From UHGV virus genome UHGV-1570564: 24,254 nucleotides of DNA. One strand, written 5' to 3'. Made by a program: the position numbers and the translations under genes. The stretch's first letter is position 1. Every line of letters begins with the position of its first letter. Under the pieces are notes generated by a model. That model did not search any database, was not told the origin of the DNA, and saw only the letters and a program-made list of their open reading frames with translations. Source of the DNA: a virus. Positions 7,565-24,254 of the stretch are shown in pieces.

Positions 7565-7772
7565 TATTGCGTCTCCACGGAGGAAAATTGTTTACTGATA
7601 TTGGCATAACCGGAGCATCAGGAACTTTAAGAATAATTCCCGCAGAAAAAAGCACCGTAAAGCGGTGCTCAGTATTAGCATCAATAAGAAGATAAGACAG
7701 GTACTCATTACCATACAACTTTAAAGCGATACTATCCCATGAGTCCCCTTGAACCGTTCTATAATCATCCAA
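7554..7772 (-). CDS. LysM-domain tail protein, P2 gpX-like (72 aa)
   Basis: YRTVQGDSWDSIALKLYGNEY...ILKVPD matches the LysM pattern; small size and position directly after the tape measure gene. Confidence 0.65.
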   Translation of the reverse strand: MDDYRTVQGDSWDSIALKLYGNEYLSYLLIDANTEHRFTVLFSAGIILKVPDAPVMPISVNNFPPWRRNSVT

Positions 7773-10557
7773 AACTTAATCTCCGTTGTTGGAACATATG
7801 AGCACTCAATTTCTTCTCAAAATCAGAATATCCCGCATCTAATGCTCTTTTAGCTGCCGCCTCAGTTTCCTTTGGTGAACCAGCCGGAAGATTGATTACA
7901 GGTGAATAGGTTATTCCACCAGTCACAGCGTTAACGTTCTGGCGAGGTCCAGAAGTCCCGGCGGCAGATATCCCGTGAGGTGATAAATTTGATTGCCCGA
8001 ACTTGCTTGCTATTGCATTCTGTAAGCTGTTATTCCTGCTAACACCTGATGCCAGAGTAGTCATTATTGCACCACCTGACTTTGTTAGCTGTGAGAATGG
8101 ACCTTTTTTCGCGTCAGAGAACGGTAAATACTCACGTACAGAAGAAAAAACGCCTTTCACTTCATTAATTAAAGCATTTGCTTTTGATTTTATCCCAGTG
8201 ATTAACGTCTCAATTATTTTTGCGCCTGACTCACTCCAGTTTATTCCAGATAAATAAGTCGTTACAGATTGGAATGCTCTTATAAAGAGTCCAACTGGTG
8301 AAAAACGCATAAAAACAGATACCAGTGTATCTATGATTTTCTTTCCTGTTTCGCTCCAGTTAATGCCAGAAAGGTAATTTGTTGTAATTTTAAATGCTTT
8401 AATTAAGAACGGAAGCGGAGACATCCATTTAAAAGCACTAATTAATGTACTGTAAATTCTTACACCTGCCGAACTCCAGTTTATGTTGGAAAGATAATCC
8501 CATGCTTTACCAAACATAGATATAATCCATCCATTGAGGTCAAAGTTTAAGATAAAGTTTTTTATAGCCTCAAATGATTTAACTGTATATTCCTTAACAG
8601 AAGGCCAAACTCTGACAGCATAATCTCTGATCTTATCCCAATTCTGATAGAGCAATATTCCTGCGGCAACCAGCGCAGATATAGCCATCTGAATCCACCC
8701 GAAGGGTGTTAGCTTTGTCGCTACAGATAAAGCCAGCATAGCTACCCTACACGCTATAACCACACTTTTCATGGTTAGAAACGCACCTGCCGCCATCACT
8801 ATCTGAGACACAAAATTGGGGTTGTTAGCTACAAATTCACTAATTTTTGTAATCAGCGGAACCAAAACACTAAGCGCGGCATTCAAAGCAGGTTGCAAGG
8901 CCTGACCAAAACTTAATGATGCATTGCTAGCCTGAATACGTAATTGTTTCAATCGCTCCGCATTATCTTTCGTTATGTTGGCAAAATCGCGGTCAATAAC
9001 AGCACTTCCAGCTCCAAGAGATGTTGCTTTGATTCTCTGGTATTCCTTCCAGTTTTGAATCATCGGACGAACAAAGTTCTGAACCTGCATATCGCCAAAT
9101 AGTTCACCAAGTAACTTCTGATCTCCGTTCTTAGTCATTTTCATGACAGAATGCATTGCAGCTTCGAATGGATTCTTCCCTTTTTTCTGCGCTGTTGTAA
9201 CAATTTTATATAAATCTACACCGAAATTTTTCTTTGCTTTTTTTAGTGTTTCAGGGGAAAGTATTTTTGCCAAAAAGTTGTTCATATTATTAGCAGCCTC
9301 ATCCGAAGTTGCAGCCCCCTTGCGAGCTATCTGCAAAGCTGCACCCATCGTCGCGGCTGCTTCTTTACCTCCCATTTTTAATGCCTGGAACTGAGCACCA
9401 AGCACAGGAAGATTTTTGGCCATATCTTTAAATTCAAAGTTCCCCTCTTTCCCTGCCTGAACCAGAATCCCCATTGCAGACTTCATTTGAGATGGATCAA
9501 TCTTCAATGAGTCACTTAATGTAAATGATGCTTTCGAGACATCGAGGATATCAGAGCCAGTAGCTGTAGCTGTTCGCCCAATAGTTAGTAGATTCGCCTG
9601 AGCCTCTTTATAATCCTGCCCAGCAGCGACGAGAAAACCCTGAGCGGCCTGAATATCAGATGCAAACTGGTTGGTAGCCGTTCCGGTAACAAGCATCGCC
9701 TGCCCCATCGCCTGAACTTCTTCCGGCTTCATATCTGCCGTAAGACCAATCATTTTGTTTTCACGATTGAAATTTGCTGCATTGTTAGCAGCAGCAAATG
9801 CACCAGCCGCTACAGCACCAGTTTGTAATCCTGACCTTACAAGTTGACTCTTTGCCTCACCAAGATGCTCTCGCTTCAATTCACGCTGCCTTTCCAACGC
9901 GCGGTTTAACTCCTCCTGAGCACGTTTTACTGCAAGAACATTTTTCCGTGCTTCAGCCAACGCATTTTTATAGCTGTTAATTTTATCAATACGTTGTTTT
10001 TCTAATGCCCGGTTAAGTTCCTCCTGCTGTTTTTTCACTTGCTGAACATTTGCTCTGGCTAAAGCCAAAGCCGTTCTGTAGCGGTTAACCTGCTCAACGC
10101 TACGGGCCTGAGCCTCACGATTACGATCAATGCTGGCTTTAAGCTCTTTCTCTCTTGAGGCCAAAGCTCTGGCAGATGTATCAGCTCCCTGATAGGCAGA
10201 CTTTAAAGCGGCCAGTTCTTCACGCTGAGAACGTAGTGATGCTCGTAAATTCGATGAATGTGTTTTTGCCTTCTCAAAGTCACGAAGCATCGCTCTGGTT
10301 GGATTGGCCGTGTTTTTTATTTGCTTCTGTAACTCTTCAACGCGAGCGGCAGCTTTATGATATTCGAGGGCAGTCTGTCCAACCTTTACTTTTACAGATT
10401 GTAGCTTTTGAATTTCCCCATGTTCTTTCGTTAATCCAGCAAGCTCGGCATTTAATTTAGCAACAGCCTGATTAGCTGTAGTAAAACTTTTGGGGAGAGA
10501 GGCGGCAACTTTGCCGCCAATTTCAAAAGCCAGCTTAAAGTTCTTATTGCTGGCCAT
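7765..10557 (-). CDS. Tail tape measure protein (930 aa)
   Basis: Largest tail ORF, downstream of the chaperone pair; N-terminal coiled-coil repeats, central Ala/Gly-rich region, hydrophobic segments and C-terminal tandem repeats. Confidence 0.85.
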   Translation of the reverse strand: MASNKNFKLAFEIGGKVAASLPKSFTTANQAVAKLNAELAGLTKEHGEIQKLQSVKVKVGQTALEYHKAAARVEELQKQIKNTANPTRAMLRDFEKAKTHSSNLRASLRSQREELAALKSAYQGADTSARALASREKELKASIDRNREAQARSVEQVNRYRTALALARANVQQVKKQQEELNRALEKQRIDKINSYKNALAEARKNVLAVKRAQEELNRALERQRELKREHLGEAKSQLVRSGLQTGAVAAGAFAAANNAANFNRENKMIGLTADMKPEEVQAMGQAMLVTGTATNQFASDIQAAQGFLVAAGQDYKEAQANLLTIGRTATATGSDILDVSKASFTLSDSLKIDPSQMKSAMGILVQAGKEGNFEFKDMAKNLPVLGAQFQALKMGGKEAAATMGAALQIARKGAATSDEAANNMNNFLAKILSPETLKKAKKNFGVDLYKIVTTAQKKGKNPFEAAMHSVMKMTKNGDQKLLGELFGDMQVQNFVRPMIQNWKEYQRIKATSLGAGSAVIDRDFANITKDNAERLKQLRIQASNASLSFGQALQPALNAALSVLVPLITKISEFVANNPNFVSQIVMAAGAFLTMKSVVIACRVAMLALSVATKLTPFGWIQMAISALVAAGILLYQNWDKIRDYAVRVWPSVKEYTVKSFEAIKNFILNFDLNGWIISMFGKAWDYLSNINWSSAGVRIYSTLISAFKWMSPLPFLIKAFKITTNYLSGINWSETGKKIIDTLVSVFMRFSPVGLFIRAFQSVTTYLSGINWSESGAKIIETLITGIKSKANALINEVKGVFSSVREYLPFSDAKKGPFSQLTKSGGAIMTTLASGVSRNNSLQNAIASKFGQSNLSPHGISAAGTSGPRQNVNAVTGGITYSPVINLPAGSPKETEAAAKRALDAGYSDFEKKLSAHMFQQRRLSFG
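8158..8508 (-). repeat. Three tandem degenerate ~40-aa repeats in the tape measure C-terminal region (YLSGINWSE(T/S)G.KII(D/E)TL...)
   Basis: Protein-level repeats at about aa 684-800, mirrored in the DNA (cactccagtttattccagataaataagtcgttac / gctccagttaatgccagaaaggtaatttgttgt / gaactccagtttatgttggaaagataatccc). Confidence 0.55.
9880..10077 (-). repeat. Duplicated coiled-coil unit in the tape measure N-terminal region (..KKQQEELNRALEKQR.. / ..KRAQEELNRALERQR..)
   Basis: Two similar ~30-aa units at aa 161-226; the DNA shows the matching duplicated stretch (gttaa(c/g)t(c/t)cctcctg...). Confidence 0.5.
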
Positions 10558-18849: not shown

Positions 18850-20706
18850 CTATATGGTTACGCCTTTACTTATAACTCTACGGCGTCTTCTACGTATACC
18901 TGACGAGTTCTGCACATACACATTACCTCGCATTTCCTGTTCGGCAAGCCAGTTAAAATTAGGGTTCAGAATTTCCATCGCGGCAGTTGCATAGTTACGG
19001 CAATCAAGAGGCTCGTTACGCTCGTAGACTTTCACCCACTTTTCTTTTGTCTGCCCATTTTTATATTCAAATATTTTTTTCTCTGATAATAATCCTTTAA
19101 AGTATTCGGTATCATATCCTCTGTCAGAATCTAATGGGAAATGCATATAACCAGGACCAGGATCATGTAGTTTAATTCTTGCCATGATGGTCCCTTTACC
19201 ATCATCAACCCCCAAATTAAACAACATAGCACCCACACGGTTATTATTACTTGGCTTTCCTATAAATGGTAAACCTACCCCACCACGCCCCCTGATAGAG
19301 TATATTCGCCTTGATTCTCTCGGCTTAGTAAAGCGATATACCTCTGTCGTAAAATGCCCACCAGAGTCAATACAAACGGAAGAAATCTGTAATTTTCGAC
19401 CGTCACGGAATGACCAGCTACGGAGTAAGTATTCATCAAGTTGTTTCCAGACAACATCTTGTGCGGGATCACCTGGGAATATTTTATATTCTATCCCCCA
19501 TGACTCCTTACCTTTTCCCCAACCGACCAATTCACAAACTAAATACGTGTCCTGTACGTCAACACCAGCACTTAACAATAAAACATCATCTGGTAAAAAC
19601 TCTTCAAACCTTATTCTGCGTTGCAACAAGTATTCAGGATCGATATCGTCTTTAGCATCCTCTTTCCATGGCTCACCCAGCTTAAGGTTAATAAACTCCA
19701 TTAATCCATTTTTATCGCGGTTTCTGGTTGCTTCCGTAAATTCTTCAACCAGCTCTGACAATGCAACCCACGGGGAGTAAAGACTGTTAATATGAAAACC
19801 AACAATACCTTTAACTCCAGTATGTTCAGCTATCCATACCCCCTTCGCCAACCAATCAACGTCTGGTTTACCAGATCCGCGCATAATCCCGCCGCACTCA
19901 CAGCACTCATATCTGGCCGTTTCCGGTAACGCCTCACCTGAATCGCTCTTATCCCATCTGACTTGCGACCATTTCATCACCTGCATGGTGCCACAACATG
20001 GGCAAGGAACATGGTAGTAACGCTGATCGGAGAGCTTAAACCACTTGTGGATTTTGCTTGTTTCCTCCAAAACAGGAGTAGAAACAAAAACTTTCTTACG
20101 ATTATGAAAGTTGGTAGTACGCTGAATACCTAGTTTTAGTGGGTCGCCCTCCTGCGTCACACCGTAACGATCAATCTCATCAGCTAACAGTATTCGAATT
20201 GGCCTGGATGCAAGACCTGCTGGGGAATTAGCACCAACAAGTGCTATATATCCACCAGCGTAATGCTTCATACGTATAGTCGTGCTGGACTTTTTGGCTG
20301 CACCGCGCCCCTCTTTCCCTTCATGCAGCTTGTGTTTCAAACCAGGGGAATATTTGAACGTCGGATCAATACGCTCTTTTGAAAAAGCCTCAGCCGCCTC
20401 TACCGTTGGATAAATCATCAACTGAGGAGATGGCTCCTGATCTGCAAAGTAACCCATAACATTTAGCTGTAATTCGGATTTACCAATTTGCGAGCTACAT
20501 TGCATCACTACTGTTTCTGTATCAGCGTCACCAATAACATCCATTGGTTCACGCAAATATGGCACTCGGCTTGTACGCCACGGCCCTGGCTCTGGAGACG
20601 TTCCCGGCGCTACATGACGATACTTATCAGCCCATTCGGAAACAGTTAGCCGTGATTTAGGGCGAAGCGCACGGAAAAAAGCGGTGCTCCATACTGTTTC
20701 GCCCAT
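18850..20706 (-). CDS. Terminase large subunit, lambda GpA type (618 aa)
   Basis: Size and N-terminus (..RLTVSEWADKYR..) consistent with GpA-family terminases; followed by gpW-like and lambda-family portal genes. Confidence 0.85.
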   Translation of the reverse strand: MGETVWSTAFFRALRPKSRLTVSEWADKYRHVAPGTSPEPGPWRTSRVPYLREPMDVIGDADTETVVMQCSSQIGKSELQLNVMGYFADQEPSPQLMIYPTVEAAEAFSKERIDPTFKYSPGLKHKLHEGKEGRGAAKKSSTTIRMKHYAGGYIALVGANSPAGLASRPIRILLADEIDRYGVTQEGDPLKLGIQRTTNFHNRKKVFVSTPVLEETSKIHKWFKLSDQRYYHVPCPCCGTMQVMKWSQVRWDKSDSGEALPETARYECCECGGIMRGSGKPDVDWLAKGVWIAEHTGVKGIVGFHINSLYSPWVALSELVEEFTEATRNRDKNGLMEFINLKLGEPWKEDAKDDIDPEYLLQRRIRFEEFLPDDVLLLSAGVDVQDTYLVCELVGWGKGKESWGIEYKIFPGDPAQDVVWKQLDEYLLRSWSFRDGRKLQISSVCIDSGGHFTTEVYRFTKPRESRRIYSIRGRGGVGLPFIGKPSNNNRVGAMLFNLGVDDGKGTIMARIKLHDPGPGYMHFPLDSDRGYDTEYFKGLLSEKKIFEYKNGQTKEKWVKVYERNEPLDCRNYATAAMEILNPNFNWLAEQEMRGNVYVQNSSGIRRRRRRVISKGVTI

Positions 20707-20711
20707 GAGGT

Positions 20712-21263
20712 TTATTCTTCCTGCTTAATAAATCGGGATTCCTGGAGCGCCTGAAGCGCAAAATTAATCTCGTCTTCAATAATGCGCTCGATCTCCCTGG
20801 CTGTTTTGCCTTCACAACGGGGAGCTGCTCTTGGAGCAATACTAAATAAGCGGCTACGCAATTCATTAGCTGCCAGAAATGCATCATCCCTGACCGCATC
20901 TTTAGCGATGAGAGAGCCTTCCTTTTCTTCAAATTCAAGGCGTTTCAGCTTTGCCTGATAAATTTTTTCTGCGGTCTTAGCCTTGTTGAATTGCACCGCA
21001 ACACCGGAAGTACCACCAGCTAATCCGGCATCATCAGCGGGTAACTCTGGTTGTTCCGAAGATATCCCATGCCCTCTTTTTCCATTTTCAGCAGATACCT
21101 CACGACCAACCTGTCGGCTCGCTTCATAAGCCGCACTGGCTTTATCAAAATCCAGCTTGCCGCTTTTCAGCACTGGAATGCGACCGGAACGACAGAGCTT
21201 CGTAACCATTGCCGGAGAAATACCTTTCCGGCGGGCAAACTCTGACTTACTGACGATGGCCAT
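20712..21263 (-). CDS. Terminase small subunit, Nu1-like with N-terminal helix-turn-helix
   Basis: MAIVSKSEFARRKGISPAMVTKLCRSGRIPVLKSGK parallels the lambda Nu1 N-terminus. Preferred start is ATG 21263..21261, overlapping the ParB-like stop as TAATG; the ORF track start at 21272 is a TTG. Confidence 0.7.
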   Translation of the reverse strand: MAIVSKSEFARRKGISPAMVTKLCRSGRIPVLKSGKLDFDKASAAYEASRQVGREVSAENGKRGHGISSEQPELPADDAGLAGGTSGVAVQFNKAKTAEKIYQAKLKRLEFEEKEGSLIAKDAVRDDAFLAANELRSRLFSIAPRAAPRCEGKTAREIERIIEDEINFALQALQESRFIKQEE

Positions 21264-21853
21264 TACTTGCAACCATTAGCAAGATACTGAACAAATCCCT
21301 CATGCGTTTCATGCGCGTCGTGGTACTGACGATAAACATCCAGCAACAATGCAATTTCCATATCCGTCGCGGGAATACGTTCTTTATCAATAGCCAGGTA
21401 CTTAATTTGAACAACAGGGGAAGAATTATCGTCTTCTTCCTGCGGCTGTTCATCGCTTAACATTTCGTCAAGCTCTGCATCATTAAACCCAAGCAGATCA
21501 ATATCAAAATCATCATCCATTAACTCTTTGACTTCTTCGGCCAGAAGCTGCATATCCCAGCCAGCATTTAAGGCCAGCTTGTTATCTGCAATCCTGTAAG
21601 CCTTCTTCTGTTTTTCAGAAAGGTTACTCAACCGAATCGCCGGAACTTTATCCATTTCCAGAATTTCGGCTGCTGCAAGCCGCCCATGCCCCGCAATCAG
21701 TTCATTCTTTTCATCGATCAGCACAGGATTAGTGAAACCGAACTCACGGATACTGTTCACCAACTGTTCAACTTGCTCATCTGAATGAGTCCGTGAATTT
21801 TTGGCATATCTGAGCAACTTACCGACTGGTAAATATTCGATTTTTAGAGCCAT
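21263..21853 (-). CDS. ParB-like nuclease-domain (ParB/Srx fold) protein, standalone, 196 aa
   Basis: NSRTHSDEQVEQLVNSIREFGFTNPVLIDEKNELIAGHGRLAAAEILEMDKVPA matches the ParB N-terminal domain signature (..GHGRL.AA..); acidic C-terminal half; stop overlaps the small terminase start. Confidence 0.75.
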   Translation of the reverse strand: MALKIEYLPVGKLLRYAKNSRTHSDEQVEQLVNSIREFGFTNPVLIDEKNELIAGHGRLAAAEILEMDKVPAIRLSNLSEKQKKAYRIADNKLALNAGWDMQLLAEEVKELMDDDFDIDLLGFNDAELDEMLSDEQPQEEDDNSSPVVQIKYLAIDKERIPATDMEIALLLDVYRQYHDAHETHEGFVQYLANGCK

Positions 21854-22409
21854 TTTTTAACCGCCATAACACAACAGGTTAAAGAAAACTGTTTAACTTA
21901 TTGATACTAAAAGAGAAAAATGACGATCTTTTTACTCATAAAAAATCACACAAACCAGCATAATTATCTGATTTTATTAAGTTTTTATAAGTAAAAAGGA
22001 TCTTGCGATGGTGTTTTGGTTAAAAGATTGGATGTATTTGCATGATTTATAACGATTTTTATCAGAACAACATCACATTGGTTAAAGATCTGCGCGTATC
22101 TTGATGATCTAAAAGAAAATTTTCCACTTTCTTCTTACCAGCACAAATACAGAAAAAATCACGTTTTCCCGATATTTTTCAATGAGATGAGTAAATTTCT
22201 TTTACCGCAACTTTTAACCTAACTTTTTTCACGTTTAGCTAGCCGAATATCGGGGTTCGAATGACCCGCATCCAACGCTTTTGGCCAGAAGGACCCAATT
22301 CTGCCGGACGATGAAACGATGCTCGTGCTCCCCCACAGACAGCCAGCGAGCGACGCTACAGAACACAGTGAATACACCCTGCATAACAACACCATCAACC
22401 ACACGATGA
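21854..22409 (-). promoter_or_regulatory. AT-rich non-coding region upstream of the ParB-terminase-head-tail operon; candidate late promoter and/or packaging (cos) region
   Basis: About 550 bp with no convincing ORF. Repeated motifs: GGTTAAAGA-like at 21877-21885, 22018-22027, 22080-22088; AAAAAATCAC at 21940-21949 and 22153-22162; four GATC sites between 21925 and 22109. No specific -35/-10 pair could be assigned with confidence. Confidence 0.35.
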
Positions 22410-23129
22410 TTAACGAGAGAACGTCTTAGAAAGGATGTCATCAATAGCCTTTGTGACTTCATCAGCAAACGCATCCTCACCAGCACGCAGCGCCACGCCA
22501 TGCCAATCAAGACGCTGCGAATAGTTAGGTTGCTGGATGAACGTAAGGATCAACGTAGGACGCCGCCCAACGCGCTGCCAGACGCCTGGTTGAAGCGGGT
22601 TACTTGTACCAGGTCGAACAACAAAAAACTCCGTAGGCTTGCCCTGACGGCGATTTTGATGCGCATCTCGCTGAACTCTTAGGCCAGATAAGACCTGCTG
22701 TAATTGCCCCCGCGAAATATTCCCGTATTTGTCCAGCTTTGCGCCGGGACCAGGAGCAAGCTGCCAGCCGTTAGGCAAATATCCACCAGCCCTTAGCGCC
22801 CCTTCTGAGCGTTTGTACTGTCGTTGGCCGCCTTCGATTTGCGGAGTCAACGTTACAGGGGCTGGCGTTCCACCCCATTCACGAGCATACACAATGGCTG
22901 TAGGATCACTCTTCTTTGCGGCCAAAACGTAAGTAGAGTTCTGAATCCACGGCGTGGGCCTGTCAAATACCCGATTAATTTCATTCTTAATCGCAGCCTG
23001 AGAAGCCTTTGCCGTTCTGGTTGCCGCAAGCGCCATTGCGAACGGCAATTCGCGTTCTTCAAGGCGCTGGAGTTGTCGTTGAATATCCTGAGAAGAAAAA
23101 TCCATCTTTATCTCAATTCTGTCAGCCAC
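22410..23129 (-). CDS. Hypothetical protein (239 aa), Arg/Gln/Gly-rich, no cysteine; downstream partner of the methyltransferase-fold gene
   Basis: ORF with GTG start at 23129..23127 preceded by AGGAGG (23140..23135) at 5-nt spacing, 16 nt after the upstream gene's stop; no recognisable catalytic or structural motif. Confidence 0.5.
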   Translation of the reverse strand: MADRIEIKMDFSSQDIQRQLQRLEERELPFAMALAATRTAKASQAAIKNEINRVFDRPTPWIQNSTYVLAAKKSDPTAIVYAREWGGTPAPVTLTPQIEGGQRQYKRSEGALRAGGYLPNGWQLAPGPGAKLDKYGNISRGQLQQVLSGLRVQRDAHQNRRQGKPTEFFVVRPGTSNPLQPGVWQRVGRRPTLILTFIQQPNYSQRLDWHGVALRAGEDAFADEVTKAIDDILSKTFSR

Positions 23130-23145
23130 CAGCGCCTCCTACACA

Positions 23146-24219
23146 CTACTTAATCAACGGCCGGAAAGCCGCCAGCACATCATCAGATCGTCCGATTGTT
23201 GAACCACCAGGCAACGGCAACTCAAACTCAAAACGAACAGCTTTCTCCAGACTCGCCCAACTAAGGGAATCATCGTTAATGACGTGCAAATACCAGCTCT
23301 TACAGTTGAATATTGACCGCTTAATCCTGAAACCATGTACACGACACAACTGCTTCACTTCCTCATCAGAGTGAAACTTCTGGTAAAACCAGTGCCCCTT
23401 CCGGTACAACGCGGTAAAACCGTCATGATCAATAAAATAAAGCCGGCTTTTGGAACTCGCCGCTTGTGTTTGCTTCAGGACTGTTTCCAGTTCTCCACGG
23501 CTACGGCCAGAAAAGAATATTGACCCACCAGCTTTACACAGGCCTTTCAGAACCGTCAGAACGGACCATTCAGCCTCGACACTATCGACCGAGTTCAAAA
23601 CGCTATCGCAAATCACGTAGTCGTAACGCCCTCGCGTTTTTAAGTCGTCCACCAGCGTATCAATCATCCGGTTTGTTGCGGCCCTATCCAGAGTGTTTCC
23701 AGCGCCCTTACGGCGGAAAAGCTCGAGATCATGCAGGTTATATCCCTTTGCCCTGAGCATTCGCGCGTAGTCTCCCTGCCCCGAACCAAAATCAATTCCT
23801 CTTGGCGTCTTGGCAATGATCGGGAGGATCAACGACTCATACAGATTTGATTTCAGGCTGCCACCATTACGCAACCGCATAAGCTGCGCATACGTCTGGA
23901 TGTATGTTGTTTTCTCCAGATGAGAATACTCAAATACACCATAAGTTTTATTCAGATAACTTTGGTATTTTTCCTTCTCAACATCAGGGATCACAAACAC
24001 CGTTAGCGGTGTGCGCGTCATTTTCGCTGCTAATGCATACTGAGCACAGTGAATAACCTCACCAGACTGAGTAGCAACACAACCACCCCACGGACCATAC
24101 TTGATAACCAGTTCCGCTATGTTCTTTCGAACATATGCCATTTTCGCGCGCATATTGCCTGAGATCTGGCTTGCCGATACCTGAACAAAACCATGCTTAT
24201 GAAGCAATACATTCAACAT
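23146..24219 (-). CDS. Class I SAM-dependent methyltransferase-fold protein with ~135-aa N-terminal extension (357 aa); substrate unknown
   Basis: Motif I-like GIDFGSGQGDYARML, acidic residue in ..GYNLHDLELF.., and YDYVICDSVL / GGSIFFSG segments typical of Rossmann-fold methyltransferases. No (D/N/S)PP(Y/F/W) or PCQ/ENV motifs of canonical DNA methyltransferases. Confidence 0.6.
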   Translation of the reverse strand: MLNVLLHKHGFVQVSASQISGNMRAKMAYVRKNIAELVIKYGPWGGCVATQSGEVIHCAQYALAAKMTRTPLTVFVIPDVEKEKYQSYLNKTYGVFEYSHLEKTTYIQTYAQLMRLRNGGSLKSNLYESLILPIIAKTPRGIDFGSGQGDYARMLRAKGYNLHDLELFRRKGAGNTLDRAATNRMIDTLVDDLKTRGRYDYVICDSVLNSVDSVEAEWSVLTVLKGLCKAGGSIFFSGRSRGELETVLKQTQAASSKSRLYFIDHDGFTALYRKGHWFYQKFHSDEEVKQLCRVHGFRIKRSIFNCKSWYLHVINDDSLSWASLEKAVRFEFELPLPGGSTIGRSDDVLAAFRPLIK

Positions 24220-24254
24220 CAGCGTGGCTGATCACCTTTCGGGCTTTTCAAGCC

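Follow-up and report, generated by a model that had tools for sequence, protein, structure and literature searches.

The window analysed here (the whole stretch, 24,254 nt) is the late-gene half of an E. coli phage-plasmid of about 47-49 kb. The ORF listing gives a minus-strand frame of 357 aa at 23146-24219, which is the subject of this work. This frame, its parts and its neighbours are listed below; window residues are counted along the 357-aa frame.

18850-20706, minus strand: large terminase subunit, GpA type (phrog_15, 1e-258; GpA_ATPase/GpA_nuclease; RefSeq annotation)
20712-21272, minus strand: small terminase subunit (phrog_57, 7.4e-42; RefSeq annotation)
21263-21853, minus strand: stand-alone ParB/Srx protein of 196 aa, PHROG 620 (ParB_N, 3.8e-8; phrog_620, 4.6e-75)
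22410-23129, minus strand: downstream neighbour of 239 aa, PHROG 1924 ('minor tail protein'), with no Pfam match
23146-24200, minus strand: 3' part of a phage ParB-ParB'-methyltransferase gene, codons 107/108-457 and the stop (DNA identity, PHROG 5475)
23149-23325, minus strand: window residues 299-357, a C-terminal extension peculiar to this methyltransferase family (additional strands and helices in the AlphaFold2 model; invariant columns)
23326-23829, minus strand: window residues 131-298, the core of the class I SAM-dependent methyltransferase (Methyltransf_23)
23590-23625, minus strand: strand beta4 and motif IV position YDYVICDSVLNS, window residues 199-210, without a DPPY-type motif or PCQ (regex; D305, V307, N309 and S310 invariant in alignment A2)
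23773-23793, minus strand: SAM-binding motif I DFGSGQG, window residues 143-149 (regex; D243, F244, G245 and G247 invariant in 64 sequences)
23830-23949, minus strand: conserved linker/lid, window residues 91-130, with the block YGVF.Y.H.E...Q..AQ..R (invariant A2 columns)
23950-24198, minus strand: second, degenerate ParB/Srx-fold domain, window residues 8-90 (108-190 of the full-length protein), without the GxxR P-motif
24200-24254, no strand assigned: IS200/IS605 terminal fragment (tnpA-proximal end) with a subterminal hairpin (100% match to L004)

The IS200/IS605 junction

The frame is a truncated member of a catalogued and otherwise uncharacterised family, PHROG 5475, whose profile it matches (E 2.4e-199) at positions 106-457 of 458 only. 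Its protein is 99% identical over 99% of the frame to the 457-aa protein P0001, and the native gene in phage-plasmid and phage records has 1374 nt (457 aa) and is annotated as a 'ParB N-terminal domain-containing protein'. The DNA is 100% identical to that of the phage-plasmid pSCU-204-5 (L001 9147-10201) as far as position 24200, within codon 7 of the frame, and diverges abruptly beyond it. The stretch 24200-24254 is a 100% match to an IS200/IS605-family element in pMCR_W2-5 (L004 2504-2558); position 24200 is assigned to both the phage and the IS part, since both sources match there. This element, formed by tnpA and tnpB, is known from mcr-1 plasmids, and the 55 nt of it present in the window correspond to a segment that overlaps tnpA at its 3' end.

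The native gene is broken in codon 107, so that window residues 8-357 are native residues 108-457 and window residue n is residue n+100 of the full-length protein. The ATG at 24219-24217 and codons 1-7 (MLNVLLH) are IS-derived. Since phage identity stops in codon 7 and the IS match lies beyond it, the frame is chimeric and 5'-truncated. The native protein does not start from the ATG at 24219: it opens with a ParB-CTPase domain of about 107 residues, which the window copy has lost to a deletion and in whose place IS-derived sequence now stands. The window copy begins at family position 106-108 and is without this domain and its GxxR P-motif. What remains shows no sequence decay with respect to intact copies, which indicates a recent deletion; by the same token it is only the anatomy of the variant that speaks for a loss of function.

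Only an exact-protein look-up recovered the chimeric protein, from two contigs of ENA metagenomes, in both of which it had been predicted as a gene. One of these contigs stops 35 nt 5' of the ATG, exactly as the window does, and the 55 nt of IS sequence common to both suggests that assembly broke off at a repeat. On the 39.5-kb scaffold L091, blastn gave the order of a small-ParB gene cut after codon 149 of 207, a 116-nt IS end and the methyltransferase gene from codon 107. The 116-nt remnant, 55 nt of which lie in the window, is the terminus of the element (L004 2616-2501; 1831 nt for the whole element) and folds as ssDNA into strong hairpins (z -5.3). About 497 nt of phage DNA are missing, and the partner gene upstream, which encodes the small ParB, has also lost its 3' third. 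The loss of this DNA and the presence of an IS end only argue for a deletion with an IS-end remnant and not for a simple insertion. Simple IS200/IS605 insertion was discarded: there is no complete two-ended element, the breakpoint falls within the element, and some of the phage DNA has gone. Scaffold L091 also contains an exact repeat of 377 nt (1-377 and 7644-8020), made of the 5' part of the small-ParB gene and the IS end; the first copy leads into a complete 1831-nt IS and the second into the truncated methyltransferase gene. This may reflect a true duplication, or else the route that the assembler took through the repeated sequence.

It is very improbable that the frame encodes an entire methyltransferase standing by itself, its N-terminal domain being of a new kind. 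The frame has an ATG, runs to a stop, is undecayed in its DNA and, as described above, was predicted as a gene in both metagenome assemblies; against this, the ATG and 7 codons come from the IS, and the PHROG profile and about 200 family clusters have some 105 extra N-terminal residues. Furthermore, no sigma-70-like promoter was found upstream of the chimeric gene in L091, and neither 5,426 complete E. coli genomes nor PLSDB, the GTDB species representatives or IMG/VR contain the junction.

Domains of the intact protein

In the window frame Pfam finds Methyltransf_23 (PF13489) at residues 131-298 (E 6.8e-8, score above gathering) and weak further matches to Methyltransf_12/11. A regex scan places motif I, DFGSGQG, at residues 143-149 and YDYVICD at residues 199-205, and gives zero occurrences of (D/N/S)PP(Y/F/W/H), PCQ, ENV and the PP dipeptide in the window protein; the first of these patterns occurs in 0 of 64 family members. 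N6_N4_Mtase, MT-A70 and DNA_methylase are unmatched at E<=1 in the window frame and in the intact protein, neither of which matches PF01555, PF02384 or PF05063, and PF00145 (C5 type) is not matched by the window frame. A canonical DNA methyltransferase is thus ruled out by motif scans, Pfam and fold searches, and judged from its sequence the predicted enzyme is neither a canonical N6/N4 amino-methyltransferase nor a C5 methyltransferase. The earlier note on this DNA, which had described a frame with SAM-binding motif I and without N6/N4 or C5 catalytic motifs, is borne out by these scans, and the 64 relatives are alike in this respect. It had named two findings that would speak against it, a Dam/Dcm-like motif and a closely identical, characterised methyltransferase of the host with rRNA, tRNA or a small molecule as substrate; both were looked for and neither was found. 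The YDYVICD segment is present as it reported, but its label as 'post-II' was wrong. The segment is strand beta4 entering the motif IV position D205-S-V-L-N-S, which corresponds to D305/N309/S310 of the full-length protein and is invariant in alignment A2.

A canonical adenine or cytosine DNA methyltransferase whose catalytic motif has diverged or been circularly permuted is likewise a highly unlikely reading. Some records do label ParB-methyltransferase fusions as DNA methyltransferases, and MTase_II of PADLOC matches the protein; this match is limited to the ParB part (residues 10-73), and both the family-wide lack of the (D/N/S)PP(Y/F/W/H) pattern and the Pfam results given above oppose the idea. 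An assignment to defence or anti-defence was also rejected, as PADLOC reaches only the ParB module of MTase_II and NCBIfam gives ParB/Noc matches only, all below threshold.

The residues kept invariant in the methyltransferase comprise DFG.G, E266, D305/V307/N309/S310, R339, F362/D364 and G375/W377/F378/Q380/H383, and the invariance of the SAM-binding and beta4 motifs argues that the methyltransferase is under selection. E331 and F332 of the C-terminal extension (E431 and F432 of the full-length protein) are conserved as well. The nearest relatives in sequence and fold are small-molecule and tRNA class I methyltransferases, namely UbiG (4kdr), ToxA-like (5ufm), cg3271 (3h2b), Trm9 (5cm2), METTL6 (8p7b) and PH0226 (1ve3), with identities of 11-20% only, and the top fold matches are all small-molecule, tRNA or cap methyltransferases. 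With respect to these class I enzymes the family adds a C-terminal beta-hairpin and helical extension and the conserved linker. Among these small-molecule and tRNA enzymes no single subfamily stands out, and for this reason a substrate cannot be transferred from them. A search of 1.84 billion representatives brought up no more than 427 proteins at E<=1e-3, and at E<=1e-30 there were 199 clusters. Almost every full-length match aligns to the query from its own residue 105-130, which indicates that the N-terminal ParB is constant across the family; the methyltransferase forms a compact, separate lineage with this constant domain in front of it.

Pfam resolves the full-length protein into ParB_N (residues 7-68) and Methyltransf_23 (residues 231-398), and a 64-sequence profile reaches Spo0J/ParB (1.7e-8) via the first domain and UbiG (6.7e-7) via the methyltransferase domain. 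The first domain is nearest in sequence to the DNA-clamping Spo0J and Noc, and its invariant motifs are YNPR, KP, AGHQR (the GxxR P-motif) and DE..FNQ.HN.TD. By Pfam the full-length protein has neither an HTH nor any other DNA-binding domain that could be recognised.

About 130-140 residues precede the Rossmann core in the window frame. In the AlphaFold2 model of the full-length protein (pLDDT 94.3, pTM 0.90) the strand-helix-strand-strand-helix-strand-helix order of residues 2-89 is repeated in residues 110-189, and window residues 8-90 fit the ParB/Srx fold in a fold search, with no Pfam match to ParB_N in this segment. As to the two ParB-like halves being duplicates, BLASTP gave nothing and hhalign a probability of 0.5%, the fold search being the sole support. 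PadC (6ryk), sulfiredoxin (6ky4/1yzs), SerK (5x0b) and SbnI (5ujd), members of the superfamily that do not function as clamps, share 4-13% identity with the second domain. This domain has HCAQY in place of GHQR and no GxxR phosphate-binding motif, and nucleotide binding there is therefore doubtful. Given the repeated fold order, the N-terminal extension of about 135 residues that the earlier note had pointed out is indeed there, not as an unnamed novelty of a complete protein but as a second, degenerate ParB/Srx domain followed by a conserved linker. Y193, G194, Y198, Q208, A211, Q212 and R215 of the linker are invariant in A2, and its YGVF.Y.H.E...Q..AQ..R block is also kept in relatives at 31-36% identity. 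The intact product is thus formed by a ParB-CTPase-fold domain carrying AGHQR, a degenerate ParB/Srx-fold domain and a divergent class I SAM methyltransferase. ParB/Srx folds include enzymes such as SerK, SbnI and sulfiredoxin, and consequently a role of the ParB domain as a switch is not certain.

Gene neighbourhood and distribution

The region is carried by 150 of 5,426 complete E. coli genomes, almost always on plasmids, and is also found in Yersinia phages vB_YpM_39/41/44 and Escherichia phage vB_EcoM-613R2. In the E. coli phage-plasmid the order is a small ParB (207 aa), the ParB-ParB'-methyltransferase, the 239-aa protein, an AT-rich gap, a small ParB (196 aa), the small terminase and the large terminase. 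Both small ParBs belong to PHROG 620 and are homologous to the ParB module of PHROG 498 / MTase_II; the 196-aa protein matches the N-terminal region of the phrog_498 'DNA methyltransferase' (3.9e-52) and that of PADLOC MTase_II (2e-40).

The two small ParB/Srx paralogs lie at window 21263-21853 and L001 10520-11143, both on the minus strand, so that four ParB-fold domains fall within 4 kb of the phage-plasmid, and one of the small paralogs overlaps the start of the small terminase. The gap between the 239-aa and the 196-aa ParB genes (window 21854-22409) is a non-coding, AT-rich stretch of 556 nt located 5' of the packaging genes, and could hold a late promoter or a packaging-related site.

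The context was surveyed in 80 IMG/VR viral loci, 65 of them with enough flank. An upstream ORF abuts the gene in the same direction in 57 of the 65, and among the non-redundant upstream ORFs 27 of 42 have ParB_N and 3 of 42 encode another full-length ParB-ParB'-methyltransferase, a paralog in which every motif is preserved. The downstream genes encode large terminases of at least four Pfam types, small terminases and portals. The gene order is kept in Bacteroides phage BS-TP3 (35% identity) and in a metagenome phage (L007), and a Bradyrhizobium prophage retains the ParB neighbour. Canonical DNA methyltransferases are also encoded in BS-TP3 and BtpYZU02, and pSCU-204-5 has a canonical MT-A70 adenine methyltransferase (L001 13130-13723) about 3 kb upstream of the locus.

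In L086 (3036-5764) and at the equivalent place in L087-L090, two tandem full-length paralogs, 62-70% identical and with all motifs kept, take the place of the pair of small ParB and ParB-methyltransferase, which hints at a ParB-mediated dimer as the working unit. Directly 3' of the gene for the ParB-ParB'-methyltransferase, 17 of the 26 loci sampled encode a protein of about 135-155 aa (alignment A6; L007 2210-2644, L005 8419-8883, L023 1610-2041 and 14 more). It keeps W, H, C, Y, C, N, H, C, R and N invariant, with the motifs HCARCL, YLCGVS, NN.H and TCRNFQFG, and gave nothing in PHROGs, in the PDB or among the Pfam matches listed. This Cys/His-rich protein of about 145 aa, which is absent from the E. 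coli phage-plasmid, may be a third component of the cassette.

Record names such as 'nuclease' and 'ParB family chromosome partitioning protein', together with phage-plasmids as hosts, would suit a plasmid-partition ParB or 'ParB-like nuclease' in which the methyltransferase fold is incidental. We consider this very unlikely. The protein lacks an HTH and a C-terminal dimerisation domain; no ParA is adjacent, nor was one seen in the neighbourhoods inspected or among the matches listed for the viral loci. Integrated prophages and non-plasmid phages from several phyla carry the family too, and its SAM-binding and beta4 motifs are invariant. Partition as such is ruled out by the absence of ParA and of an HTH.

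Proposed function

The fusion of ParB-CTPase with Methyltransf_23 (PF13489) has been described as phage-enriched, a 'predicted DNA methyltransferase' perhaps acting in anti-defence, with no substrate given (Kaljevic et al., PNAS 2025, PMC12704722). In the same work a bacterial ParB-SAM-methyltransferase fusion binds ATP, and further nucleotide derivatives may be used by such ParB fusions; the main text of that paper, searched by term, nowhere mentions a tandem or second ParB domain. This survey aside, no functional study of PHROG 5475 or the ParB-methyltransferase family was found in the literature. PHROG 5475 and the ParB-CTPase+PF13489 fusions are intact relatives with the same Pfam architecture and phage/prophage enrichment, from which the window copy differs by the loss of its ParB-CTPase domain. 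To this picture the present analysis adds the cryptic second ParB/Srx domain, the small-ParB partner and the terminase-proximal position.

Two other systems offer a comparison. The phage ParB-N6_N4 fusions (PF02195+PF01555; PHROG 498; MTase_II) also join an N-terminal ParB to a SAM methyltransferase, are phage-borne and often lie near packaging genes, whereas the methyltransferase here belongs to another class I lineage, has no DPPY-type motif IV and follows a tandem second ParB-fold domain. A phage ParB without a DNA-binding domain activates a thymine dioxygenase on dsDNA, and ParB and terminase genes are often found together with the DNA-modification genes of phages (O'Toole et al., PNAS 2026, PMC13229309). 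That pair, 5mYOX176/ParB176, resembles ours in that a ParB homolog without a DNA-binding domain works with a DNA-modifying enzyme; it differs in being an Fe/2OG dioxygenase with a separate ParB, whereas here the enzyme is a methyltransferase and ParB is both fused and separate. No dioxygenase was seen among the neighbourhood matches listed.

We propose that in the intact system the ParB domain, which by analogy would bind an NTP, may serve as a nucleotide-gated module that targets or activates the methyltransferase. This module probably pairs with the small ParB encoded just upstream, or with the full-length paralog in some phages, and would set the methyltransferase on its substrate late in infection, before packaging. 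With the switch domain and an intact partner both missing, the window copy is probably inactive; inactive or unregulated is its most likely state. We are highly confident of the anatomical part of this proposal, that is, the identity of the gene, its truncation, the IS scar and the architecture. Taken jointly with the mechanism, as a truncated, IS-scarred gene of a three-module ParB-methyltransferase acting as a nucleotide-gated late modifier, the reading is reasonably likely.

The substrate is a more tentative matter. The ParB fusion, a partner ParB of the type fused to DNA methyltransferases and the place upstream of the terminase together make the context favour DNA or packaging over free small-molecule metabolism. 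Phage DNA, or something bound to it, is the likeliest candidate, which we hold at somewhat under even confidence; a mark on phage DNA would be non-canonical, other than N6-A, N4-C or C5-C methylation. The earlier note had suggested a substrate outside standard adenine or cytosine methylation, a small molecule among them; the first part agrees with our results, and the context leads away from free small-molecule metabolism. The position beside the terminase may also be a mere boundary between early and late modules.

Several observations count against DNA. The same phages already encode canonical DNA methyltransferases, no canonical DNA-methyltransferase motif is present anywhere in the family, and the fold matches belong to small-molecule, tRNA and cap enzymes. 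These same points, and the lack of an HTH in the protein, would suit a methyltransferase acting on a non-DNA substrate, either a ParB-held nucleotide or a signal derived from it, RNA (tRNA or another kind), or a protein of the phage or its host, with ParB as a ligand-binding or regulatory domain. The closest counterparts in fold and sequence are UbiG, the ToxA-like N-methyltransferases, Trm9, METTL6, the cap N7-methyltransferases and the dTDP-sugar C-methyltransferases, and the ATP binding of related fusions, with their possible use of other nucleotide derivatives (PMC12704722), fits it as well. We consider this reading, which in essence carries the idea of the earlier note over to the intact family, less likely than not but nearly as likely as the one with phage DNA. 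Against it, the small ParB to which the gene is tightly linked across phyla is of the kind fused to real DNA methyltransferases, packaging genes are tightly linked too, the N-terminal domain is closest to the DNA-clamping Spo0J and Noc, and metabolic or RNA-related genes are not conserved nearby among the matches listed.

The result for the window is mainly corrective, as the 'odd methyltransferase' is a broken copy of a catalogued phage protein, and the deletion variant, judged from its anatomy, would represent a natural knockout circulating among the phage-plasmids of gut E. coli. The intact family offers a well-defined target, with a cryptic second ParB fold, a ParB partner or tandem paralog and a packaging-adjacent place that is conserved between Proteobacteria and Bacteroidota. 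Should the enzyme act on DNA, it would bring new chemistry to phage DNA modification and extend the theme of ParB activating DNA-modifying enzymes. As a more speculative proposal, to which we give a low probability, the family would be a nucleotide-gated tandem-ParB methyltransferase working with the small ParB, and often with the protein of about 145 aa, either to place a new DNA mark other than N6, N4 or C5 methylation before packaging or to methylate a nucleotide-type molecule held in the ParB fold. If true, either activity would define an enzyme class new to phage modification or counter-defence.

Two minor features were observed away from the gene. A tRNA at L001 14031-14106 of pSCU-204-5, likewise some 3 kb upstream of the locus, is given as Ile in RefSeq and as Met in the Yersinia phage record. 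At the left edge of the window, in the tail-fibre assembly region, positions 1-137 have no match in reference phage-plasmids, and positions 1-193 on the minus strand match Rfam IS009 (RF02111) with 212.7 bits against a gathering threshold of 117.
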